The translations under genes were made by a program, and so were the position numbers. Shown here in pieces: positions 1 to 63,878 of a stretch of 64,000 bases of DNA. The notes below the pieces were generated by a model. It made no database searches. It saw only the letters and a list, made by a program, of their open reading frames with translations, and had not been told where the DNA came from. How positions within the stretch are numbered: position 1 is the first letter of the stretch; each line of letters starts with the position of its first letter. The stretch comes from Candidatus Omnitrophota bacterium (GTDB taxonomy: Bacteria > Omnitrophota > Gorgyraeia > JAGLLT01), in the NCBI GenBank assembly GCA_030632085.1, contig DAOVJY010000002.1, positions 13,325 to 77,324 of the forward strand, read 5' to 3'.

Positions 1-600
1 AGAGATTATAACAGAAAAGGTAAATATAAAGTTGCGGTTATTGATTGTGGAGTTAAATATAATATTTTAAGAGAGTTAGCCCAACGAGATTGTCAACTTA
101 AACTCTTTCCCGCAAAAACTAAAGCCGCGGAAATTCTTAAAATAAAACCGGACGGTGTCTTTTTGTCTAACGGCCCCGGTGACCCTGAGGGGGCAGCCTA
201 TGTGCCTGAAACCGTAAAGCAACTCCTGGGTAAAGTACCGTTATTTGGAATTTGCCTGGGCCAGCAGATGCTGGGCCTGGCCTTAGGCGGCAAGACCTAT
301 AAATTAAAATTCGGTCATCACGGAGCCAATCATCCCGTAAAAGATTTAAAGACTAATAAAATAGCGATAACAGTGCAAAATCATAACTTCTGCGTAGACA
401 TAGATTCACTTAATAAAAACGATATTGAAGTAACCCACATAAATCTAAACGATAATACCTTAGAAGGTATAAAACATAAAAAAATATCCGCCTTTTCTGT
501 GCAATTTCATCCTGAAGCTTCACCAGGGCCGAATGATGCTAAATATATATTTGACGATTTTATAAAATTAATGAGGAAGCATAGTGCCAAAAAGAAATGA
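1..600 (+). CDS. carA: carbamoyl-phosphate synthase small subunit (glutamine amidotransferase), 5' end cut by window edge
   Basis: Frame 1 is open from nt 1 ([36 protein letters not shown]...). The class I GATase motifs [15 protein letters not shown] and HHGANHPV are present, and the gene ends with a stop at 598-600. The ORF-track start at 163 is an internal Met. Confidence 0.9.
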
Positions 601-2224
601 CTTTAAAAAAATATTAATTATAGGAGCCGGCCCGATTATAATCGGCCAGGCATGTGAATTTGATTATTCCGGTTCTCAAGCCTGTAAAGTTTTAAAAAAT
701 GAAGGTTATAAGGTTATTTTATTAAATAGCAACCCGGCGACTATTATGACCGATCCGGATATGGCCGATAGGACTTATATTGAGCCGGTAACAGCTGATA
801 TGGTTGAGGAGATTGTAAAAAAAGAAAGACCGGATGCTATCTTACCTACTTTAGGTGGCCAAACAGGCCTCAATGTAACCGTAGAGGCTGCAAAAAGAGG
901 TATTTTTAAAAAATATAATGTTGAGGTTATAGGTGCCAATATAAAATCTATAAAAAAAGCTGAGGATAGAGAGCTCTTTAGGAGAGCTATGAAAAAAATT
1001 GGCTTGGATATGCCTCAAAGCGGTAAGGCTAATACTTTAAGAGAAGCTGAGGCGGTGGCTGAGAGAATAGGATATCCTTTAATTATTAGACCGGCTTTTA
1101 CTTTAGGCGGGCTCGGTGGCGGAATTGCTAATAATAAAGAAGAATTTAAGGAGCTTGTAAAAAGCGGCATAGAAGCTAGTATGATAAATGAGATTTTAGT
1201 TGAAGAATCTATATGCGGCTGGAAAGAATATGAAATGGAAGTTATGAGAGATGTTAACGATAATGTGGTTATCATCTGTTCTATTGAGAATTTTGATGCC
1301 ATGGGAGTGCATACTGGGGATTCAATAACAGTAGCTCCTATCCAGACCCTAACGGATAAAGAATATCAGAAAATGCGCGATGCTTCTATTGCCTGTATAA
1401 GAGAGATAGGAGTAGAAACAGGTGGTTCAAATATACAGTTTGCGGTTGATCCTGAGAATGGCCGCATGGTGGTTATTGAAATGAATCCCAGAGTTTCGCG
1501 TTCATCGGCCCTGGCTTCTAAGGCGACAGGTTTCCCGATTGCTAAAATTGCCGCCAAGCTGGCTGTGGGTTATACTTTAGATGAGATTCCCAATGATATT
1601 ACTCAAAAAACTCCATCATGCTTTGAGCCCACGATTGATTACTGTGTGGTTAAAATACCTAGATTTACATTTGAGAAGTTTAAGAAAGCTGACGATACTC
1701 TGACTTCATCCATGAAGTCAATTGGGGAGACTATGGCAATTGGCAGGACTTTTAAAGAATCCCTGCAAAAAGCCCTGCGTTCTTTAGAGACCGGCGTCAG
1801 CGGCCTGATAGATATTGAAAATGATATTTCCAAAAAAGAACTCCTTGAATTATTGTCCAGGCCTAACTGCCAGAGAATCTTTTATATTAAAAAAGCCTTG
1901 AAAGAAGGAATATCTTTAGATGAAATTTATAAATATTCAAAAATAGATAAATGGTTTTTGGCCAACATACTTGATATTGTGAAAATGGAAGAAAATATCA
2001 TTAAAAGCAGAAAGAAAAAAGGTAAGGCCTTAATTAAAATAGTAAGAGAAGCCAAAAGGTACGGGTTTTCCGATAAACAACTGGCAGCTTTACTTAAAAA
2101 GACGGAAATCTGGATATATAAATTCAGAAAAGATAACGGTATAACTCCGAAGTTCAAACTGGTTGATACCTGCGCGGCGGAGTTTGAGGCCTATACACCT
2201 TACTATTACTCTACATATGAATAG
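584..2224 (+). CDS. carB: carbamoyl-phosphate synthase large subunit, N-terminal half only (first ATP-grasp plus oligomerisation domain); split or truncated carB
   Basis: 546 aa with [53 protein letters not shown] and a terminal [18 protein letters not shown], then a TAG stop, with purF starting 12 nt later. Full-length CarB is about 1070 aa and continues past this point into a second ATP-grasp half. Confidence 0.85.
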
Positions 2225-2235
2225 GGGAATAAGAT

Positions 2236-3606
2236 ATGTGCGGAATATTCGGCATTGCGAATCATAAAGACGCGGCTAAATTAACCTACTTGGGGCTTTA
2301 TGCCCTGCAGCACCGCGGGGAAGAAAGCGCGGGCATTGTCACCAGGCATTGTAAAAAGCTTCTCAGTTATAAAGGCATGGGTTTAGTCGGTGATATTTTC
2401 AACAAAGATGTTCTTAAAAATCTTAAAGGTGATATTGCCGTCGGCCATACAAGATATTCTACTACCGGCTCAACAACAACTAAAAATATTCAACCATTCT
2501 ATATTAAACACAAGAAAGAAAATCTGACTATTGCTCACAATGGTAATCTCATTAATACAGCTGAACTTCATGGGCAATTAGAGAAGAATGGGGCGATCTT
2601 TCAGACAACAATGGATTCTGAAATTATAGCCCATCTGTTTACTCATAGTAATGAAAAGAACTATAAGAAACTTATCAGTAATATGCTTTGCCAACTTCAA
2701 GGGGCTTATTCTTTAGTTATGCTTTTGAATGATGTTCTAATAGGGGCCAGAGATCCTTTTGGCTGGAGGCCGCTATGTATAGGTAAATTGAATGAGAGTT
2801 ATGTATTAGCCAGCGAAACCTGCGCTCTTGATTTGATTCAGGCTGAGTATATACGCGATGTTGAGCCGGGAGAAATTGTTTTTATCAGTAAAAAAGGCAT
2901 TGAATGCCTGAAGCCTCCCAAAGAGCACAAAAAGTCTTTTTGCGTATTTGAATATATTTATTTTTCAAGGCCGGACAGCAATATCTTTGGTAGTAATGTT
3001 TACTTAACCAGAAAACAGCTCGGCAGGCAATTAGCTAAAGAGCATCCTGTAGATTGTGATCTGGTGATGTCAATTCCAGACTCAGGTAATTACGCTGCCG
3101 TAGGTTATGCCGAGGCCTTAAAGAAACCTTGTGAAGTGGGGATGATTAGGAATCATTATGTTGGCCGTACTTTTATTCAACCCTCACAATTTATAAGAGA
3201 TTTTAAAGTGAAGGTAAAACTCAATCCCATAAAAGAGGTTTTAAAAGGTAAAAAAATCGCGGTTATTGAAGATTCCATTGTAAGAGGTACAACCAGTAGA
3301 GCTAGAATAAAGGCTCTAAGGGATGCCGGAGCTAAAGAAATTCATATGCGGGTAACATGCCCACCGTTAAAATATCCTTGCTTTTTTGGAATAGACTTTC
3401 CAACGAAAAAAGAACTTATTGCCTCAAATCAAACCATAAAAGAAATAGCTAAACACCTGGGCTTGGACTCACTTGAATATATTAGTTTAGAAGGCATGCT
3501 GAAATCAATGAAGCAGCCAGATAACGATTTTTGTACAGCTTGTTTTAATGGAAAGTATCCGGTAAAACTGCCAAAAAAGTTGTCAAAATATATTCTGGAA
3601 AAATAA
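2236..3606 (+). CDS. purF: amidophosphoribosyltransferase
   Basis: N-terminal MCGIFGI (Ntn Cys nucleophile), PRTase motif in VIEDSIVRGTTS, and C-terminal Cys residues (CTACFNG) typical of Fe-S-containing PurF. Confidence 0.93.
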   Translation: MCGIFGIANHKDAAKLTYLGLYALQHRGEESAGIVTRHCKKLLSYKGMGLVGDIFNKDVLKNLKGDIAVGHTRYSTTGSTTTKNIQPFYIKHKKENLTIAHNGNLINTAELHGQLEKNGAIFQTTMDSEIIAHLFTHSNEKNYKKLISNMLCQLQGAYSLVMLLNDVLIGARDPFGWRPLCIGKLNESYVLASETCALDLIQAEYIRDVEPGEIVFISKKGIECLKPPKEHKKSFCVFEYIYFSRPDSNIFGSNVYLTRKQLGRQLAKEHPVDCDLVMSIPDSGNYAAVGYAEALKKPCEVGMIRNHYVGRTFIQPSQFIRDFKVKVKLNPIKEVLKGKKIAVIEDSIVRGTTSRARIKALRDAGAKEIHMRVTCPPLKYPCFFGIDFPTKKELIASNQTIKEIAKHLGLDSLEYISLEGMLKSMKQPDNDFCTACFNGKYPVKLPKKLSKYILEK

Positions 3607-3671
3607 GTTTTTATTTAACAATAGACAAAATAACATTTTTTACCTATAATATAAACACTCAATATAAAAGT

Positions 3672-3703
3672 ACCTTCTGTTATGTTTTGCAGAAGGTTTT
3701 ATT
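3672..3703 (+). terminator. rho-independent terminator after purF
   Basis: Stem accttctg / cagaaggt (8 bp) around the loop ttatgttttg, followed by ttttatt. Confidence 0.5.
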
Positions 3704-3755
3704 GCTTATAAGGAGTTTTAAATATTAAGGTGGAATTTATTACCAGAAGAATAAT

Positions 3756-5594
3756 ATGAAAAATAAAATTAGTTATGATGTTATTGTGGTGGGAGCGGGG
3801 CATGCCGGTTGTGAGGCGGCTTTAGCTTCTGCTCGTCTTAAATTAAATACCGCTCTGGTTACATTTAATATAGATAAAATAGCGCTTTTAAGTTGTAATC
3901 CGGCGGTAGGCGGCCTGGGCAAAGGCCAGCTGGTTAAAGAAATCGACGCCCTGGGCGGTGAAATTGCCAAGGCGGCTGATAGTGCCGGTATTCAGTTTAA
4001 AAAACTTAATGCTTCTAAGGGGCCGGCTGTCTGGTCCAGTCGGGCTCAGGTGGACATGAATGATTACCCCGCGTATATGAGGCGGATAGTTGAGAAGCAA
4101 GATAACCTCACGCTTATTGAAGGGGAGGCTACAGGTTTTATTATTAAGGCGGATAAAATACAAGGCATAAAGCTAGATAAAAATAGAACTCTAAAAGCAA
4201 AAAAGGTTATTTTAGCCTGTGGAACTTTTTTAAACGGCCTGATGCACATTGGTATGGAGAGTTTTGAAGGCGGCAGAATAGAGGAGCCGGTCTCGGCTAA
4301 GAAGATTTCAAAAGAGTTAAAAAAAATCGGCCATAAATTGCTTCGCTTTAAAACCGGCACCTGTGCCAGGTTAGACAGGGCTACTATAGATTTTTCAAAG
4401 TGCACTACTCAGGAAGGTGATAAACCACCCCTGCCATTTTCTTTATCTAATGAAAAATTAATTAAGAAACAAGTTACCTGTTATATAACTTATACTAATG
4501 AAAAAACTCACAAGATAATCAGAAATGATTTAGAGCGTTCGCCTTTATTTTCAGGCAAAATTACCGGAACAGGGGTAAGGTATTGCCCTTCATTAGAAGA
4601 TAAAGTGGTGAAGTTTCCGCATCATAAGCGCCATCAGATTTTTTTAGAGCCGGAGACTAAGGAAAATATTCAGTATTATCCCAACGGTTTGTCAACCAGT
4701 TTGCCCCGGGATGCCCAGGAAGCCTTTATTCGTTCGGTTCCGGGCTTAAAAAATGTAAAGATAAACCGCTATGGTTATGGAATTGAACATGATGCCTTCG
4801 ACTCAACTCAGCTTTACCCAACTCTAGAATCAAAATTAGTTAAGGGGCTTTATTTAGCCGGTCAGATTAATGGGACAACCGGCTATGAAGAAGCTGCCGC
4901 CCAAGGAATTATCGCCGGTATTAACGCTGTTTTATCCATAAGCAAAAAAGAACCCTTGGTATTAGATAGGGCTTCAAGTTATATTGGGGTGTTAATTGAT
5001 GATTTGGTAACTAAAGGTACTAACGAACCTTACAGGATGCTGACTTCAAGAGTAGAATACCGCCTTATTTTAAGGGAAGATAATGCCGACCTGCGCCTTA
5101 GGAAAATAGGTTATAAGGTTGGTTTAATTAGTAAAAATGAATATAGTAAAATTTTAAAAAAAGAAAAAGAAATAATAGCGGTTATAAAATTTTTAAAAAC
5201 AGAGAAAATGCGTCATAGAACCGGCAAAATAACTCTCTATCAGGATTTAAAACGTCCCGAGGTAAAAATAAAAGACATTAAAAAGAAGTATAAACTAACT
5301 TTTTCCGATGCCGCCTTAAGGCAGGTAGAAATCGCTGCTAAATATGAGGGTTTTATTAAGAGGCAGGAGGCACAAGTAAAGGCTTTTGAGGATTTAGAGA
5401 AAATTAAAATACCAACAAATATAAATTATAAAAAAGTACCTTCTTTATCTTTAGAGATTATTGAAAAACTAACATATTTTAAACCCCTAACATTGGGTCA
5501 GGCTAATCGTATCTCAGGGATTACCCCGGCGGCTATTACCGTATTAATGGTTTATTTGAAAAAGAAAAAACATGTTTCCAAAGGCAAGATATAA
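3756..5594 (+). CDS. mnmG: tRNA uridine 5-carboxymethylaminomethyl modification enzyme MnmG/GidA
   Basis: 612 aa with N-terminal YDVIVVGAGHAGCEAA FAD-binding motif and GidA-family similarity throughout (GLYLAGQINGTTGYEEAAAQG). Confidence 0.95.
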   Translation: MKNKISYDVIVVGAGHAGCEAALASARLKLNTALVTFNIDKIALLSCNPAVGGLGKGQLVKEIDALGGEIAKAADSAGIQFKKLNASKGPAVWSSRAQVDMNDYPAYMRRIVEKQDNLTLIEGEATGFIIKADKIQGIKLDKNRTLKAKKVILACGTFLNGLMHIGMESFEGGRIEEPVSAKKISKELKKIGHKLLRFKTGTCARLDRATIDFSKCTTQEGDKPPLPFSLSNEKLIKKQVTCYITYTNEKTHKIIRNDLERSPLFSGKITGTGVRYCPSLEDKVVKFPHHKRHQIFLEPETKENIQYYPNGLSTSLPRDAQEAFIRSVPGLKNVKINRYGYGIEHDAFDSTQLYPTLESKLVKGLYLAGQINGTTGYEEAAAQGIIAGINAVLSISKKEPLVLDRASSYIGVLIDDLVTKGTNEPYRMLTSRVEYRLILREDNADLRLRKIGYKVGLISKNEYSKILKKEKEIIAVIKFLKTEKMRHRTGKITLYQDLKRPEVKIKDIKKKYKLTFSDAALRQVEIAAKYEGFIKRQEAQVKAFEDLEKIKIPTNINYKKVPSLSLEIIEKLTYFKPLTLGQANRISGITPAAITVLMVYLKKKKHVSKGKI

Positions 5595-6495
5595 AAAATT
5601 TTCAGATTATTTAAAGGAGCGTTTTAACGAACGTGTTTATAAGGTGAGTGTGGATGCCGGTTTTTCGTGTCCTAATAAAGATGGCAAGTTTTCAGATGAG
5701 GGTTGTATCTTTTGTGATAATAGAACCTTTAATGCTTATTTCGGAAATCAACGAATACCCATAAAAGAACAAATCTCAAACGGCATAAAGTTTGGCAGTT
5801 CCCGCTATAGAGCAAAAAAGTTTTTAGTTTATTTTCAGGCGAATACTAATACCTATGCTTCAATAGATGAGTTAAAGAAAATATATGATTCTATAAATGA
5901 GTTTGATGATGTCGCGGGCCTTATGATTGGAACCAGGCCTGATTGCATAGATAATGAAATTTTAGATTTAATTGAAAGCTATAGTACTAAATATGAAGTC
6001 TGGCTGGAGTATGGTTTACAGAGCATGCACGACCAGACCTTAAAATTAGTTAACAGAAACCATACCTATAAAGATTTCCTTAAAACTTATAATTTAACAA
6101 AGAATAGAAATATTAAAGTTTGCCCCCATGTTATTTTAGGCTTGCCGCATGAAACAACCGCGGAAATGCTTGAAACTGCCAAAGAGATGGCGCGGCTTAA
6201 ACCGGATGCCATCAAAATACATCCCTTACATATAGTAAAAGATACTAATTTAGAAAAACTCTATAAAGAAGATAAATTTAAAATGTATTCATTGGGTGAA
6301 TACTATGATTTATTAATTAATTTTTTAAGATACCTGCATCCTGAGACTATAATCGCCCGCTTAACCGCGGATTGCCCCAGGAAATTACTAATAGAACCCC
6401 AATGGCTTGAAGAAAAAGCAAGATTTATCCAGCTCTTAGATAAAGAGATGGACGAAAGAGGAATTTTTCAGGGAGATTTATATAAAGGGATGTAG
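5572..6495 (+). CDS. radical SAM protein, TIGR01212 (YhcC-like) family
   Basis: 307 aa. Cys cluster CPNKDGKFSDEGCIFCDN near the N-terminus and overall similarity to the TIGR01212 family. It overlaps the mnmG 3' end by 23 nt. Confidence 0.75.
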   Translation: MFPKARYKKFSDYLKERFNERVYKVSVDAGFSCPNKDGKFSDEGCIFCDNRTFNAYFGNQRIPIKEQISNGIKFGSSRYRAKKFLVYFQANTNTYASIDELKKIYDSINEFDDVAGLMIGTRPDCIDNEILDLIESYSTKYEVWLEYGLQSMHDQTLKLVNRNHTYKDFLKTYNLTKNRNIKVCPHVILGLPHETTAEMLETAKEMARLKPDAIKIHPLHIVKDTNLEKLYKEDKFKMYSLGEYYDLLINFLRYLHPETIIARLTADCPRKLLIEPQWLEEKARFIQLLDKEMDERGIFQGDLYKGM

Positions 6496-35623: not shown

Positions 35624-38600
35624 ATGGCAAGTAAAATGAAAACCATGGATGGTAACACAGCGGCCGCCTATATAGGCCATGCCACAAATGAAGTAATCGC
35701 AATATATCCCATAACTCCTTCATCCGGAGTGGGGGAAATGGCTGACGCGAAATCCGCCAAGGGAGAAGTTAATATTTGGGGCCAGGTACCAACTGTATCC
35801 GAGCTTCAGTCGGAAGCGGGTGCTGCGGGAACTGTACACGGCGCCTTGACAGCCGGCAGCATGACTACAACATTTACCGCTTCTCAAGGCCTGCTTTTAA
35901 TGATTCCTAACATGCATAAAATAGCAGGTGAACTTACACCTGCTGTTTTTTATGTGACCGCTAGAACTGTGGCCTCACATGCTTTATCCATTTTTTGTGA
36001 CCACTCTGATATTATGGCAGTGCGCTCGACCGGTTTTGCCATTCTTTCCGGTTCCAGTGTTCAAGAGGTTATGGATTTAGCCTTAGTGGCTCAAGCGGCT
36101 ACATTGGAATCCAGAGTTCCGTTTGTTTTTACCTATGACGGCTTCAGGACTTCACATGAAATTCAAAAGATAGAAGAAATTGATTTTGCGAGCATGAAAT
36201 CTCTTATAAAAAATGAATACTTAAGAAGCCATAGGCTCAGGGGACTTAATCCTGAAAGGCCGGTTTTAAGGGGTACTTCTCAGAATCCGGATGTTTTTTT
36301 TCAGGAAAGGGAAACCGTAAACGCGTATTATGATAAATGCCCTCAGATAGTTGAGGATGTAATGAAGAGATTTAAAGAAGTTGTCGGTAGGGAATATAAA
36401 CTTTTTGAGTATGTCGGAGCCCCGGACGCCGAGCGCGTCATTTTGATTATGGGTTCTGCCGCCGAGACGGTTCACGAGGCAGTTGATTATCTGGTTGCTC
36501 AAGGTGAAAAAGTAGGCGTTCTAAAGGTAAAATTGTTCAGGCCTTTCTCGATAGAGCATTTTATTAAGGCTTTACCTGCCAGCGTTAAGAAAATTGCTGT
36601 TTTGGATAGGACTAAAGAGCCTGGAGCTTTAGGCGAACCACTTTACCTTGACGCGCGCTCAGCTATTGGTGAAGCTATGGAAAAAGGTATAGCTACGCTT
36701 AAGGAGTATCCGGTAATTGTTGGCGGCAGGTATGGCTTGGGTTCTAAAGAGTTTACGCCGGCTATGGTAAGAGGTGTTTTTGATAACCTTTCTTTAGATA
36801 AAAACAAAATAAAGAATCATTTTACTGTTGGTATCAATGACGATTTAACTCATACAAGCTTGGAATATAATGCTGAATTCTCAACTGAAGACCCTGATAC
36901 TTTCAGGGGTATTTTTTACGGTTTGGGTTCAGATGGTACTGTGGGAGCTAATAAGAATTCAATTAAAATAATCGGTGAGTTGACTGATAATTATGTCCAA
37001 GGTTATTTTGTTTATGATTCCAAGAAAGCCGGTTCAAAAACAGTTTCACATTTAAGATTCGGCAAACATCTCATCAGAGGAACTTATCTGATAAGTAAAG
37101 CTAACTTTGTAGCTTGTCACAATTTTTCGTTTTTAGAGAAATATGATGTTTTAGGAGCAGCTGAAGATAAGGCTACTTTTCTTTTAGCCAGTCCTTTTTC
37201 AAAAGATGAGGTCTGGGATAAAATGCCTATAGAGGTGCAGAAACAGATAATTGATAAGAAATTAAAATTTTATGTAATTCAAGCTTATAAACTAGCCGGG
37301 GAAATCGGTCTTGGAGTGAGAATAAATGTAATAATGCAGACCGCTTTTTTTGCTATTAGTGAAGTAATTGATAAAAATAAAGCTGTTGAGGCTATTAAGG
37401 ACGCGATTATAAAGTCCTATGGGAAAAAGGGTGAAAGCGTGGTTAATATGAATAACCAGGCTGTAGATAAAGCCCTTGAAGCTATTGAAGAAGTTATTGT
37501 TCCCAAGGAAGCAACCAGTAAAATAAAAATACCGGCTGCGGTACCCGATGAGGCTCCTGAATTTGTAAAGAATGTAACAGCAAAAATAATCGTGGATAAA
37601 GGTGATGAGCTTCCGGTTTCCGCCTTTCCGAAGGATGGGACTTTTCCGACAGCGACATCGCAGTATGAAAAACGAAACATTGCTATAAACATTCCTGAAT
37701 GGGATCCTGAAATATGTATCCAGTGTGGCCAGTGTTCATTAGTTTGTCCGCACGCGGCTATCAGGATGAAGATGTATGATAAAAAGCTTTTAGATAAAGC
37801 TCCTGTTACTTTTAAGCATATGCAGGCAAAAGGAAAAGATTTAGAAGGCAAGGCATTAACTATACAAGTGGCTCCCGAGGATTGTACCGGTTGCGGTGCT
37901 TGTGTTAATATCTGTCCAATTACGCGAAAAGATAAAGACAATAAGCCTACAGGCAGAAAAGCGCTTAATATGGTACCTCAAATTGACAGGCGTCTAAAAG
38001 AAAAAGATAATTTCACATTTTTCTTATCGCTTCCGGATATGAAAGCTGAAGATTTACCAGTTGGTATAGGGACTTTAAAAGGTTCTCAGTTAATGAGGCC
38101 TTTATTTGAGTTTTCCGGTGCTTGTGCCGGTTGCGGTGAAACACCCTATGTAAAACTACTTTCTCAACTTTTTGGAGACAGGGCTTTAATTGCCAACGCG
38201 ACCGGCTGTACTTCAATTTACGGTGGTAATTTACCGACAACACCCTATTGCGTTAGAAATGATGGCAGGGGCCCCGCTTGGTCAAACTCTTTATTCGAGG
38301 ATAACGCTGAGTTTGGTTTTGGTATGCGCCTGGCTGTTGAACAGTTATCGGAAAAAGCCAAACTTCTTTTAAAAGATGTAGCTGAAAAAATATCTGATAA
38401 AAAATCGCTTATTGATGAAATTATAACAACCAGCCAGATAACTCATGATGAGATAGATAAACAAAGATTTAGAATTGAAGAATTAAGAGAAGCCCTAAAA
38501 AAATTCAGTAGTGAGGCGAAGGTAGCTGAGTTACTTGAAATACTGGATTACCTGGTGAAAAAATCAGTTTGGATTTTAGGTGGTGACGGCTGGGCTTATG

Positions 38601-58463: not shown

Positions 58464-59153
58464 GTGATGCTTATGAGTACCTTAGATTATCTTTGCCCAC
58501 TTGTTTTTTCGTTGATTTTATGCGGTTGTATCGGGCTTGAAAGAGAGTCTCACGGTAGAGCGGCCGGACTTAGAACGCACATACTTGTGGGCATAAGTTC
58601 GACTTTGATTGTCTTATCATCTATTTACATGGCCCAATCCCGTACGTATGGCATTGCCATTGATCCGGGCAGGGTAGCGGCCGGAGTTGTAACCGGTATT
58701 GGTTTTATCGGTGCCGGCACAATCATAAGGTTCAGGGCTTCAATTAAGGGGCTTACAACCGCCGCCAGCATATGGGCCGCGGCCGCGGTAGGCCTGGCCA
58801 TTGGTTCCGGATTTTATTTAGGCGCCCTGGTAACTACAGCCTTAATTCTCTTTTCCCTGGTCTTTTTAGGAAAAATTGAGAAAATGTTTATTAAGAAAAC
58901 TTATTATAAAAGTTTAGTTGTCATAAGTTCCGCGGAGGTTGGCAATCTTAAACTGATCAAGCAGGTTCTAGATAGTTATGAAGCTGATATAAAAGATTTT
59001 GAAATTTCCGTATCGAAAAAAAATGAACAGGTAAACCTATGTTTTGATTTAAAAATTGATGATAATATTGAAGAAGAATTGGTTACCGCTGTCGCGAGAA
59101 TTAAAGGTGTTGTTAGCGCCAGCTGGTTTAATAAACAAGAGGAGGTGAATTAA
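58464..59153 (+). CDS. mgtC: MgtC/SapB family membrane protein with C-terminal ACT-like domain
   Basis: 229 aa. ERESHGRAAGLRTHILVGISS and GIGFIGAGTII are MgtC hallmarks. Confidence 0.8.
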   Translation: MMLMSTLDYLCPLVFSLILCGCIGLERESHGRAAGLRTHILVGISSTLIVLSSIYMAQSRTYGIAIDPGRVAAGVVTGIGFIGAGTIIRFRASIKGLTTAASIWAAAAVGLAIGSGFYLGALVTTALILFSLVFLGKIEKMFIKKTYYKSLVVISSAEVGNLKLIKQVLDSYEADIKDFEISVSKKNEQVNLCFDLKIDDNIEEELVTAVARIKGVVSASWFNKQEEVN

Positions 59154-59155
59154 AA

Positions 59156-59698
59156 ATGTTTAAGGGTTCTAGAGAGAACGCCGAAGGCAAAAAATCTAAG
59201 GTCCTCGACGTTGATGCCAGCATGCAAGGGAGCCTTGTTTTCAAAGATGCTGTGGATTTGAAAATTAGCGGTCAATTTGAAGGCAGCCTGGATGTAAAGG
59301 GGAATCTTACCGTTGGGGAAAATGCTTCGGTAAATGCCGAAGTTAAAGGCGAGAATATAACCGTCTCAGGTAAGATAGTCGGTGATATAATTACCAGCTC
59401 TAAACTTACTCTCACCAGAACGGCGAGAATAATAGGGGATATTAAAACGCCGGTTTTAAAAGTAGAAGAAGGGGCTGTTTTGCAGGGGAACTGCCAGATG
59501 ATTTCCAATGAGGAACCGTCAGGTAAAAAAAAAGAAATTCTAAACACTGAGCAGCTCGCGGAATATCTTGAAGTCGAATTTGACGAGGTTGATGAGTGGA
59601 TAAAAAATCGAAAGATACCGGCCTTTAAGGAAAATAACGAATGGAAGTTTGATAAGGCAAAAATTGATGCCTGGGTTGTCTCGGAGAAAATAAAGTAA
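59156..59698 (+). CDS. bactofilin (DUF583) fused to a C-terminal excisionase-family HTH_17 DNA-binding domain
   Basis: Residues about 25-120 form bactofilin beta-helix repeats (KISGQFEGSLDVKGNLTVGENASVNAEVKGENITVSGKIVGDI...). The C-terminus LNTEQLAEYLEVEFDEVDEWIKNRKIPAFKENNEWKFDKAKIDAWV matches the excisionase-type HTH (TIGR01764/PF12728) consensus. Confidence 0.75.
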   Translation: MFKGSRENAEGKKSKVLDVDASMQGSLVFKDAVDLKISGQFEGSLDVKGNLTVGENASVNAEVKGENITVSGKIVGDIITSSKLTLTRTARIIGDIKTPVLKVEEGAVLQGNCQMISNEEPSGKKKEILNTEQLAEYLEVEFDEVDEWIKNRKIPAFKENNEWKFDKAKIDAWVVSEKIK

Positions 59699-59775
59699 TT
59701 AAATTGAGGGCAATTATTAGTAATTAAGCAAAGAAATAGTTAAGCTGATAATAAAAAGAAAAATATAATTAGATT

Positions 59776-60120
59776 ATGTTTGAAGAAAAACTTTTAAGTT
59801 TAAAAGCGGCGGCGGAATATCTAGGTATCACCGAGAAACGCCTCAAAGAACTTTCAGACCACGGAGTTATTCCCGCATATAGGATTGCCGGTTTATATTT
59901 ACGTTTTAAAAAGAGCCAGCTTGGGAAGTTAAAAGGGAAAATGAGTAATATTCAGAATCAGTATTCTCAATATCAGCAGACCAGAAGTTCATTTACCAGA
60001 GATGTAGTCTATACAACCAAGGATAGGTTAAGGGATTTCTGGCATTTTTATGATTTTTACATTATCAGTGTGGTATTGATAGCCGGGATTTTATTTATTA
60101 TTTTTAGACATACTTTATAA
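59776..60120 (+). CDS. membrane-anchored excisionase-family HTH_17 protein
   Basis: 114 aa. N-terminal LSLKAAAEYLGITEKRLKELSDHGVIPAYRIAGLYLRFKKSQL (HTH_17) and a C-terminal TM helix (IISVVLIAGILFIIF). Confidence 0.55.
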   Translation: MFEEKLLSLKAAAEYLGITEKRLKELSDHGVIPAYRIAGLYLRFKKSQLGKLKGKMSNIQNQYSQYQQTRSSFTRDVVYTTKDRLRDFWHFYDFYIISVVLIAGILFIIFRHTL

Positions 60121-62165: not shown

Positions 62166-63878
62166 TTGATTGATAACAGTAGACTCATAAAAGACAGTAT
62201 TCGCAACACAGGCTTGCTTACTGATGACCAGATTAGACAAGCCCTTGAATTTCAACTTAAAAGTAAAGATTGCTTTAGTCATATATTGGCTAAAATGGGG
62301 TTTATCGTTAATGAAGATGTGGTTAGCAGCCTACCTGATCAAATTGGACTTGTGCCCGTTTCTTTAAAAGATATAAAAGTTGATAATAAGGCCGTAAAAA
62401 AAGTTTCTTCATCTTTTGCTTATCAACATAGAATCCTACCTATAAATTTTCAAGACGACGTTTTAACCATAGTCACAGATGACCCGCTTAATTTTTTAGC
62501 TTTGGAGAATTTAAATAAAATATTAGGGTTAAAGATGAAAGCTATCCTTGTGACGGAAAGCGAACTCAAGGAGAAACAGAATTTATATTACGGAGATAAG
62601 AAAGAAGAAGAGAAGGCCTTAGATAATGTTGTCCAAACTATTGATACTGAAAAGGAATATTATGGCAAGGGCGAAGAAGCTGGATTTGCTTATGCTACCG
62701 GTGAAGAAGACGCTCCTATTATTCGTTTAGTAGGTTTAATACTAAGTGAGGCTGTAAAAAATAGGGCCAGTGATATTCATGTTGAACCCCTGGAGAAAGA
62801 ATTTAGGGTTCGCTATAGAATAGACGGCCTTTTGCATGAAGTACCCGCTCCGCCAAAACATTTACAAGGTTCAGTTATTAGTCGAATAAAACTTATGGCC
62901 GGCATAGATATTGCTGAGAAACGGCTGCCCCAGGACGGGCGTATCCGAGTTCGGCTTTTAGATAAAGATTTGGATTTGCGCGTTTCAACCTTGCCCGGAA
63001 TTTACGGCGAATCGGTAGTTATGAGAATTCTTGATAAGGCGAGTTTACTTATCGGTTTGGAAGAAATCGGTTTTCTTACTGAAGATAGAAAGAAATTTGA
63101 AGAGTTAATTGAACTGCCCAACGGTACACTCTTGGTTACCGGCCCTACGGGGTCGGGGAAAACCACTACCCTTTATGCCGCGCTTAATTATCTTAATAAA
63201 CCTAATAAAAAAATAATTACTATTGAAGATCCGGTTGAATATCAGATAAAAGGTATTAATCAGGTTCAAATAAGGCCCCAAATTGGTTTGACCTTTTCCT
63301 CGGGATTAAGAGCCATGCTTAGGCAGGCCCCCGATGTGATTCTTGTGGGTGAAATTCGCGACAAAGAGACGGCTTCAATTGCTATTCAGGCGGCGCTTAC
63401 CGGCCACCTGGTATTTTCTACACTGCATACTAATGATGCTCCGGGAGCGGTTACCCGATTGATTGATATGGGCATAAAAGGCTACCTGGTAGCTTCGACT
63501 CTGCAGGCGGTATTAGCTCAGAGATTAGTCAGGAGGATATGTCCCAACTGCAAAAAACCTTACACTCCAAAACCGGAAGAAATCAAGGCTATGGGATTAA
63601 AGGAAAAGGATTTGGTGGGAGCTGAATTCATGATGGGTGAGGGTTGTCCGGAATGCAGTAATACAGGCTTTAGGGGAAGGCAGGCAATTTTTGAAATGCT
63701 GATTGTAAACGACACAATAAGAGAAATGATTTTTGAGAAAAAATCAAGTTCTGAGATAAAAAATAAAGCCGTTCAACTGGGTATGAAAACTTTAAAAGAA
63801 AACGGCAAGATAAAAGCCCTTAAGGGTGTGACAACCATTTCAGAGGTTATACGTGTGGCCCAGATGGATGAATTATAA
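62166..63878 (+). CDS. pilB: type IV pilus assembly ATPase PilB / GspE-family secretion ATPase
   Basis: 570 aa. T2SE_Nter domain, Walker A LVTGPTGSGKTTT, His/Asp boxes, and tetracysteine CPNCKK...CPEC. TTG start. Confidence 0.82.
   Translation: MIDNSRLIKDSIRNTGLLTDDQIRQALEFQLKSKDCFSHILAKMGFIVNEDVVSSLPDQIGLVPVSLKDIKVDNKAVKKVSSSFAYQHRILPINFQDDVLTIVTDDPLNFLALENLNKILGLKMKAILVTESELKEKQNLYYGDKKEEEKALDNVVQTIDTEKEYYGKGEEAGFAYATGEEDAPIIRLVGLILSEAVKNRASDIHVEPLEKEFRVRYRIDGLLHEVPAPPKHLQGSVISRIKLMAGIDIAEKRLPQDGRIRVRLLDKDLDLRVSTLPGIYGESVVMRILDKASLLIGLEEIGFLTEDRKKFEELIELPNGTLLVTGPTGSGKTTTLYAALNYLNKPNKKIITIEDPVEYQIKGINQVQIRPQIGLTFSSGLRAMLRQAPDVILVGEIRDKETASIAIQAALTGHLVFSTLHTNDAPGAVTRLIDMGIKGYLVASTLQAVLAQRLVRRICPNCKKPYTPKPEEIKAMGLKEKDLVGAEFMMGEGCPECSNTGFRGRQAIFEMLIVNDTIREMIFEKKSSSEIKNKAVQLGMKTLKENGKIKALKGVTTISEVIRVAQMDEL

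Follow-up and report, generated by a model that had tools for sequence, protein, structure and literature searches.

Two adjacent genes were analysed in a 64,000-nt stretch of a Candidatus Omnitrophota genome (contig DAOVJY010000002.1, positions 13,325 to 77,324; assembly GCA_030632085.1), which is referred to here as the window and is numbered from its first nucleotide. The upstream gene (59156..59698, + strand) encodes a protein of 180 aa plus stop in which a bactofilin core is followed by a domain of the winged helix-turn-helix (wHTH) type. The downstream gene (59776..60120, + strand) encodes a protein of 114 aa plus stop with an N-terminal wHTH and a predicted C-terminal transmembrane (TM) helix. 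Both genes were delimited from the list of open reading frames (ORFs), Pfam matches and AlphaFold2 models. Bactofilins are widespread bacterial cytoskeletal scaffolds, and the Omnitrophota are ultra-small, genome-reduced cells; to our knowledge, the bactofilins studied so far all act through short tails and separate client proteins. The fusion protein and its partner apparently constitute a phylum-wide bactofilin architecture that has not been described before.

The Pfam Bactofilin profile (PF04519) matched residues 16-114 of the 180-aa protein over profile positions 2-98 of 98, with a score of 82.8 bits against a cutoff of 27.9, and HTH_17 matched residues 129-174 at 30.7 bits against a cutoff of 27. 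The original prediction, made from the ORF and its translation, had named a bactofilin core with an excisionase-type HTH tail and had proposed a profile search of that tail as a check; the tail scored above the HTH_17 cutoff, and the ORF, both domains and both folds were confirmed. The NCBIfam model TIGR01764 ('excise') scored just below its cutoff for both proteins (26.7 against 28.8 for the bactofilin tail). An AlphaFold2 model built on a 35-sequence alignment gave a mean predicted local distance difference test (pLDDT) of 82.6 and two confident domains, an all-beta beta-helix at residues 16-115 (pLDDT >90) and a winged helix of beta-alpha-alpha-beta-beta-alpha topology at residues 128-179 (pLDDT ~86). 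When the core was compared with the PDB by Foldseek, the top matches were BacA (2n3d) and Thermus bactofilin (6rib/6ria), with a probability of 1.00, template-modelling scores on the target (TMt) of 0.67-0.78 and modest E-values (about 0.01). The tail matched BldC at a root-mean-square deviation (rmsd) of 1.5-1.8 Å and TMt of 0.73-0.77, and further matches were RacA, RdfS, Pukovnik Xis and the centromere-binding domain of pSK1 Par. Sequence and predicted fold make the fusion protein a member of the bactofilin family and its tail a member of the HTH_17 fold family.

The fusion protein begins with a disordered basic N-terminus (residues 1-15, MFKGSRENAEGKKSK, 59156..59200, + strand; pLDDT <50 for residues 1-13). 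Its first residues are MFKGSRENAEGKK, and the start reads MFKG... in this clade; the global consensus of the bactofilin membrane-targeting sequence (MTS) is MFSKKKK (PMC12448750). Judged with heuristic start codons, the N-terminus is always basic across the family (mean of 4.1 K/R among the first 12 residues), and positions 2-4 hold a Phe in only 18/81 sequences and a hydrophobic residue in 57/81. The basic N-terminus resembles the bactofilin MTS and appears MTS-like in this clade, and the protein presumably associates with the membrane. The beta-helix core (residues 16-115, 59201..59500, + strand) was assigned from PF04519, pLDDT and Foldseek, and opens with LDVDASMQG, a family-specific motif that is invariant in the orthologue alignment. 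As a member of the bactofilin family, the core would be expected to polymerise. A flexible linker (residues 116-127, 59501..59536, + strand), with low pLDDT at residues 119-124 and a length of 4 to 19 residues in orthologues, leads to the Xis/BldC/RacA-type winged helix (residues 128-180, 59537..59695, + strand), which was assigned from HTH_17, the modelled topology and Foldseek. Helix 2 of this domain is acidic (EFDEVDEW), its wing is basic and conserved (K153, K158, K164, K167), and the protein ends in a conserved C-terminal tail, SEKIK.

In the 114-aa partner, HTH_17 matched residues 6-49 at 27.0 bits, exactly at the cutoff of 27, and the match was stronger in its relatives (29/29, best E = 1.5e-12). 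The partner model showed the same wHTH topology as the bactofilin tail at residues 6-53 and a terminal helix at residues 93-113. The N-terminal winged helix (residues 4-53, 59785..59934, + strand), placed by HTH_17, Foldseek and a residue census, matched BldC at an rmsd of 1.2-1.5 Å and also RacA, and so had the same structural neighbours as the bactofilin tail; the rmsd range for both winged helices against BldC, RacA, RdfS and Pukovnik Xis was 1.2-3 Å. It is followed by a variable linker (residues 54-83, 59935..60024, + strand; 11 to 53 residues in orthologues), modelled as a basic helix at residues 56-73 and then disordered, and by an aromatic and acidic juxtamembrane motif (residues 84-95, RLRDFWHFYDFY, 60025..60060, + strand) that overlaps a predicted helix at residues 81-91. 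The family alignment gives this motif as an invariant DF(F/W)x(F/Y)xDFY, in which D87, F88, D93, F94 and Y95 of the window partner do not vary. The C-terminal TM helix occupies about residues 93-111 (60052..60108, + strand), according to hydropathy and a model helix with pLDDT of 86-92 at residues 93-113. Only 3-4 residues lie beyond it in the window partner and 0-5 in all 79 orthologues, and the best 19-residue Kyte-Doolittle window has a mean of 2.31 over the 79 orthologues and lies no more than 5 residues from the C-terminus in 79/79. This extreme C-terminal position implies a tail-anchor topology. The architecture of wHTH with an invariant R43, variable linker, juxtamembrane motif and TM helix is constant in the partner family.

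The original prediction of a next gene with an N-terminal HTH of the same type and a single TM helix was therefore upheld by the HTH_17 match at cutoff and the modelled helix, with the correction that the TM helix is placed at the extreme C-terminus and that the two HTHs are only about 24-27% identical. Homology of the two HTHs stood at the profile level (hhalign probability 97.9%, E = 6e-13, 24% identity). A chance or borderline HTH call was ruled out by the family-wide HTH_17 matches (E = 8e-15 for the bactofilin family and 1.5e-12 for the partner family) and the confirmed folds; in the bactofilin family, 35/35 sampled members matched both Pfam families. Public names of partner relatives are only 'helix-turn-helix domain-containing' or 'excisionase family' protein, from Omnitrophota, and the public annotations of both families are automated labels only.

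A word-indexed search of 5.8 billion proteins returned 287 relatives of the fusion protein. Both Pfam domains were present in 120/120 relatives among the matches listed, the named ones being Omnitrophota, and the best named match was Candidatus Kappaea frigidicola (87% identity). When 1.84 billion cluster representatives were searched exhaustively with a profile, only 48 clusters scored at E up to 1e-30. Some 25-30 of them are full-length fused proteins, and so few clusters indicate a compact family. Both the bactofilin core and the winged helix are strongly conserved in the orthologue alignment. When one genome per species was scanned, at least 525 species-level genomes contained a relative. 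The best 80 of these, which were used for the locus comparison, are labelled Omnitrophota or, coarsely, 'uncultured Planctomycetia'; two complete chromosomes, of 1.14 and 1.55 Mb, are among them. A core cell-biological role is suggested by the retention of the family throughout an uncultured phylum, genomes of 1.1-1.5 Mb included. The fusion family had no relatives in IMG/VR, and no other paralogs were found within the 64-kb window.

A partner homologue lies directly downstream of the bactofilin gene, on the same strand, in 79/79 testable loci from different species-level genomes; the single untestable locus of the 80 (L076) meets a contig edge just after the bactofilin gene. The conserved pairing that had been proposed as something to check was thereby established, and it extends to a divergent lineage, P0139, in which the bactofilin-HTH gene is followed by one for a 97-aa HTH_17 protein with a C-terminal TM helix (L082-L083). 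The upstream genes of the P0139 lineage are entirely different, encoding a coiled-coil protein (>=1073 aa), a SPOR-domain membrane protein and a TPR-PDZ protein, and retention of the pair despite this difference indicates that the two genes are the invariant unit. The first of these loci (L082, positions 68-5841 of CAZMGY010000013.1, GCA_964565945.1) has a cell-division flavour from its SPOR, coiled-coil and TPR+PDZ proteins. Its partner is without the DFxYFNDFY motif, and helix 2 of its bactofilin tail is basic (SQKVKKW), yet by hand count this tail is net acidic overall. A more distant fused lineage, P0281 (locus L081), has no HTH-TM partner.

In the window, the two genes are separated by an AT-rich spacer of 77 nt (59699..59775, + strand) in which no terminator-like site was seen; across orthologous loci, the median gap by first-ATG calling is ~26 nt, with several overlaps. 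A strong Shine-Dalgarno sequence (GAGGAGGTGA, 59139..59148, + strand), read from the sequence, lies 7 nt before the bactofilin ATG within the 3′ end of the gene directly upstream (58464-59153), whose product is a membrane protein of the MgtC family, ACT-like in its C-terminal region. The stop codon of this gene (59151-59153) is 2 nt before the bactofilin ATG, and the position of the Shine-Dalgarno sequence and stop codon together suggest one operon with translational coupling. Promoter and terminator scans gave counts that did not exceed those expected from shuffled sequence. About 70/80 loci have an MgtC homologue upstream, and the upstream order CtpA-(YibQ-like deacetylase)-TsaD-MgtC is widespread as well. 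The gene pair is a conserved module of the Omnitrophota and is probably co-transcribed.

The residues by which solved relatives of the tail read DNA were compared across the family. The best solved sequence for the tail profile was RacA (5i41), a weak match at E = 0.006, followed by Xis Gp37 and BldC. In the recognition helix of RacA, K15 and R19 make base contacts and are completely conserved; K15A binds DNA weakly, binding by R19A is not measurable, and wing residue R30 also matters (PMC4914108). BldC K26 and R30 are equivalent to RacA K15 and R19, and R30A abolishes binding (PMC5859096). In the HMMER alignment, these two positions correspond to D143 and E147 of the window bactofilin. Among the 81 tails, the K15/K26 position is mostly Ser (S 50, G 9, N 7, K 1) and the R19/R30 position mostly acidic (E 38, D 21, N 10, K 4; E/D in 59/81). 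All four exposed helix-2 positions are without K/R in 69/81 tails, and the same helix face bears two nearly invariant acidic positions, E139 and E/D141. The domain has a mean net charge of -1.8, with values below zero in 82% of members and of -4 to -5 in the window protein; the aligned segments of the four solved DNA-binding relatives on which this comparison rests, RacA, Gp37 Xis, BldC and RdfS, carry +1 to +5. The acidic residues are conserved rather than random, which argues for a selected non-DNA surface. A basic recognition helix, the sequence signature of DNA binding, is thus missing from the bactofilin tail, and the basic residues of the wing are retained, K/R being found at K153 in 81/81, K158 in 79/81, K164 in 73/81 and K167 in 80/81.

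The partner HTH is less degenerate. Its K15/K26 position is not conserved (E 23, K 12, D 11, S 10; n = 79), its R19/R30 position is basic in 38 of the 79, and at least one K/R occupies the exposed positions of helix 2 in 63/79, giving a recognition helix of mixed charge; in its wing, R43 is invariant (79/79) and K45 is K/R in 77/79. Judged from these alignments, the bactofilin tail has lost the canonical DNA-reading residues and canonical major-groove reading by it is unlikely, although DNA contact mediated by the wing and backbone, and helped by avidity, could occur. The partner appears to be the better DNA-binding candidate of the two proteins, though not a convincing one.

The reading that we favour, tentatively, is that of a membrane-proximal bactofilin scaffold whose repurposed winged helices couple to the tail-anchored partner, with any DNA contact being secondary. 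The bactofilin would assemble on the cytoplasmic face of the membrane and show a dense array of winged-helix domains whose role would have shifted from DNA reading to protein docking. The partner would be an inner-membrane protein with its winged helix exposed to the cytoplasm on a variable linker, and the winged helices would couple the polymer to it as a scaffold-client or scaffold-anchor pair, analogous to MreB with the RodZ HTH or BacA with the cytoplasmic tail of PbpC. Any contact with DNA would be made mainly through the less degenerate HTH of the partner and the conserved basic wings, aided by avidity. A scaffold-partner complex fits with the conserved, non-basic face of helix 2 and with the two genes being invariably adjacent; the physical contact of the proteins and what the winged helices bind are inferences. 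Precedents exist in other systems: the membrane-anchored HTH of RodZ binds MreB, not DNA (PMC6946637); the bitopic client PbpC uses its cytoplasmic tail to bind BacA and can take the place of the MTS (PMC12448750); and BacR, an HTH protein whose gene adjoins bactofilin genes in Firmicutes, binds BacE/BacF and no longer binds DNA in the bound state (PMC13649987). In the Foldseek searches, the MerR-like fold of both winged helices was also found in the complex of CbpM with the J-domain protein CbpA (3ucs).

Several observations weigh against this scaffold-partner reading. Characterised HTH_17 members are overwhelmingly DNA binders, and every close solved relative of the two winged helices is a DNA binder. 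A mirror-tree analysis over the 79 pairs gave r of about 0.57-0.59, the same for every domain pair, and neither partial correlations nor column-wise charge covariation (79 pairs; symmetric) gave any signal beyond shared phylogeny. Electrostatic complementarity between the bactofilin tail and the partner HTH was tried and rejected as a family trait: it was seen in the window only (-4 against +4), the partner HTH has a mean net charge of +0.1 (standard deviation 2.3) across the family, and the charges of the two domains correlate positively (r = +0.32). The conserved wing basics could contact the DNA backbone, and the avidity of a polymer could offset a weak monomer affinity. The partner-less L081 gene, moreover, stands in a cluster with actin-like and ParA-like proteins, which hints at a positioning or segregation role.

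A second explanation is that the bactofilin winged helix binds DNA, specifically or non-specifically, so that the polymer serves as a multivalent tether for the nucleoid, an origin or a plasmid and the partner as a second DNA-membrane tether, much as in RacA/DivIVA, Noc or pSK1 Par and here built on a bactofilin. We regard this as a serious rival, somewhat less probable than the scaffold-partner reading, and give about the same weight to the specific form of it in which the polymer itself is the DNA-membrane tether, acting through its basic wing in a non-canonical, avidity-driven manner and making up, with the tail-anchored paralog, a minimal two-protein nucleoid-anchoring or segregation apparatus. 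RacA, a chromosome anchor, heads the solved matches of the tail profile and follows the same logic, with a disordered linker between wHTH and oligomerising domain, and the Foldseek matches include BldC-DNA and RacA-DNA complexes besides the pSK1 Par centromere-binding domain. The wing basic equivalent to RacA R30 (K158) is conserved, W148, the counterpart of the phosphate-contacting BldC W31, is kept in 80/81 tails, polymerisation would supply avidity, and the distant bactofilin-HTH lineage adjoins a ParA/MinD-type ATPase and an actin-like protein. Set against these are the replacement of the base-reading Lys/Arg of RacA and BldC by Ser and Glu/Asp, the lack of K/R on most exposed helix-2 faces, the negative charge of the domain, and an acidic patch (E139, E/D141, E/D147) conserved on the very face that contacts DNA in solved complexes; in addition, no segregation genes were found among the annotated ORFs of the window, where the context is one of housekeeping and envelope genes. 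The direct DNA anchoring that was originally proposed is thus borne out only in part: the nearest solved relatives, RacA and pSK1 Par among them, speak for it, and DNA binding by the bactofilin's own HTH, which is without K15/R19 equivalents and is mostly acidic, finds no support.

Recruitment of other clients was also considered, the winged helices binding neither DNA nor each other and the adjacency of the genes reflecting co-expression only. Candidate clients are envelope-remodelling proteins, type IV pilus or type II secretion components, a TPR-PDZ protein and a SPOR division protein. Bactofilins typically recruit cell-wall enzymes, as BacA recruits PbpC, and also in favour are the conserved CtpA-(deacetylase)-TsaD-MgtC order upstream, the two GspE/PilB-like ATPases often found downstream, the SPOR and TPR-PDZ proteins directly upstream in the divergent lineage and the TPR-PDZ homologue downstream in L078. 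However, the wider neighbourhood differs between clades, the two-gene pair alone being invariant, and TsaD and PitA/PhoU are functionally unrelated, which makes synteny a weak guide; we consider this explanation improbable. Less probable still is a circuit resembling that of BacR, in which one or both HTH regulators would be kept from DNA by sequestration at the membrane or on the polymer, for example a tail-anchored HTH that is held off the nucleoid or freed by proteolysis on envelope stress. Bacillus BacR (DUF4004, with an N-terminal HTH) adjoins bactofilin genes, binds BacE/BacF, which inhibit its DNA binding, and switches between membrane and nucleoid upon cell-wall stress; the partner has helix-2 K/R residues in most orthologues and the invariant wing Arg, and envelope genes (CtpA protease, YibQ-like deacetylase) lie upstream. 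An HTH covalently fused to every bactofilin subunit cannot shuttle, though, and neither protein matches DUF4004. Furthermore, the bactofilin gene abuts the upstream gene with no space for an operator or promoter, the 0-5 residues beyond the TM helix leave no sensing domain, and a conserved cleavage site was not evident.

With canonical bactofilins (Caulobacter BacA, Thermus TtBac, Helicobacter CcmA), the fusion protein shares a complete beta-helix core and a short basic N-terminus. The C-terminal tails of canonical bactofilins are short and unstructured, and these proteins act via separate clients or adaptors, whereas the Omnitrophota family has a folded 50-residue winged helix on each subunit and a dedicated, invariably adjacent membrane partner. 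RacA, which acts in B. subtilis sporulation, is alike in its MerR/Xis-like winged helix, disordered linker and self-associating domain, but its oligomerisation relies on a coiled coil and its anchoring on DivIVA, and its K15/R19 are Ser and Glu/Asp in the Omnitrophota family; no RacA-type coiled-coil domain is present in the bactofilin model, and of the RacA residues only the wing basic is kept. The closest structural matches of both HTHs are BldC, Xis and RdfS (rmsd 1.2-1.8 Å, template-modelling score 0.73-0.82 on target), which share the beta-alpha-alpha-beta-beta-alpha topology, oligomerise head-to-tail on DNA and tend to form wHTH filaments. These proteins are stand-alone and net basic (+4 to +5 over the aligned segment), unlike the bactofilin tail, which is acidic and without K26/R30 equivalents.

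In Bacillus subtilis, BacR (YhbD, DUF4004) likewise combines an HTH protein with adjoining bactofilin genes, BacE and BacF, and is physically coupled to their products at the membrane. BacR differs in being soluble, separate, about 210 aa long, from another family, encoded upstream of the bactofilins and able to shuttle to the nucleoid; the Omnitrophota partner has 114 aa and is encoded downstream, and DUF4004 (PF13171) gave no match at E up to 1 in either protein. RodZ and MreB offer an analogy only, that of a cytoskeletal polymer bound by the cytoplasmic N-terminal HTH of a protein anchored in the membrane; the HTH of RodZ is of the XRE type, its TM helix lies mid-protein, and it has a periplasmic domain and the actin-like MreB as its partner. 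In Myxococcus xanthus, BacNOP-PadC-ParB/ParA links a bactofilin scaffold to chromosome organisation (PMC5703909). There the link to DNA runs through the adaptor PadC and ParABS, whereas the Omnitrophota bactofilin itself carries a fold of the DNA-binding type. The fusion protein is not an excisionase, a functional RacA homologue, a DUF4004 protein or a RodZ. In particular, a mobile-element excisionase was ruled out by the lack of integrase or mobile genes among the annotated window ORFs, the chromosomal, phylum-wide synteny and the lack of relatives in IMG/VR, and in this core-chromosome context 'excisionase' is a label of fold, not of function.

In the full-text literature searched, whose coverage leaves out many papers from subscription journals, no paper coupled a bactofilin with Omnitrophota or with an excisionase, and no bactofilin fused to an HTH or other DNA-binding domain was described; the suggestion that the architecture was new agrees with this outcome. 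A folded domain of the nucleic-acid-binding type on each subunit, together with a dedicated membrane partner, is an addition to the bactofilin repertoire. If the domains bind DNA, they would represent a new and very compact coupling of chromosome and membrane; if they do not, they would be a clear natural case of a DNA-binding fold turned, as in RodZ, into a module for cytoskeletal docking, and the sequence changes concerned are open to mutational tests. Although the hosts are uncultured, both proteins are small and soluble enough for direct biochemistry.

The partner-less locus L081 (290-5567, JGI 3300009777, Ga0105164_10002154) belongs to the bactofilin-HTH lineage P0281/P0166. Its bactofilin-HTH gene lies downstream of genes for an actin-like Volactin (307 bits) and a ParA/MinD-type ATPase, the latter carrying a C-terminal AMPK1_CBM/CBM48 carbohydrate-binding domain, and the cluster also contains three proteins without a Pfam match; it looks cytoskeletal or cargo-positioning. 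The profile search also returned tandem HTH_17-like repeat proteins, with 3 repeats in the 231-aa P0180 and 7 in P0198 and P0269, as well as 13 HTH_17-like stretches in P0176 (4162 aa) and 33 bactofilin-like stretches in P0137 (4767 aa).

Downstream of the pair, PitA and PhoU are found in close relatives only, and elsewhere two GspE/PilB-like ATPases are often present. In many Omnitrophota loci, these are two tandem GspE/PilB/MshE-type ATPases within 1-2 kb after the gene pair, and the window has a GspE/PilB/MshE-type ATPase with an MshEN domain at 62166-63878. A TPR+PDZ protein with a signal peptide is encoded downstream in L078 (4789-5751) and resembles the one directly upstream of the pair in L082; such a protein recurs downstream in many Omnitrophota loci. 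Weak PDZ ('CtpA') matches occur 1-3.5 kb downstream in L026, L037, L043, L048, L052, L055, L061, L064, L068 and L072, and a second small bactofilin-like ORF follows the pair in L038, L051, L061, L072 and L078.

The window itself is core chromosome, with SurA-PdxA-KsgA, GatA/GatB, CtpA, TsaD, central metabolism and PitA/PhoU. Its annotation covers 26 of about 50 ORFs of at least 150 aa, and among these 26, in a housekeeping and envelope context, there were no integrase, mobile-element, recombinase or segregation genes; no tRNA genes were found in the 64 kb. All window ORFs of at least 150 aa are on the + strand except 37417-37941, which lies within the gene for pyruvate:ferredoxin oxidoreductase and is probably spurious. 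Every 2-kb bin of the window has a positive GC skew (0.10-0.26), and the window is a very long co-directional, leading-strand-like stretch.

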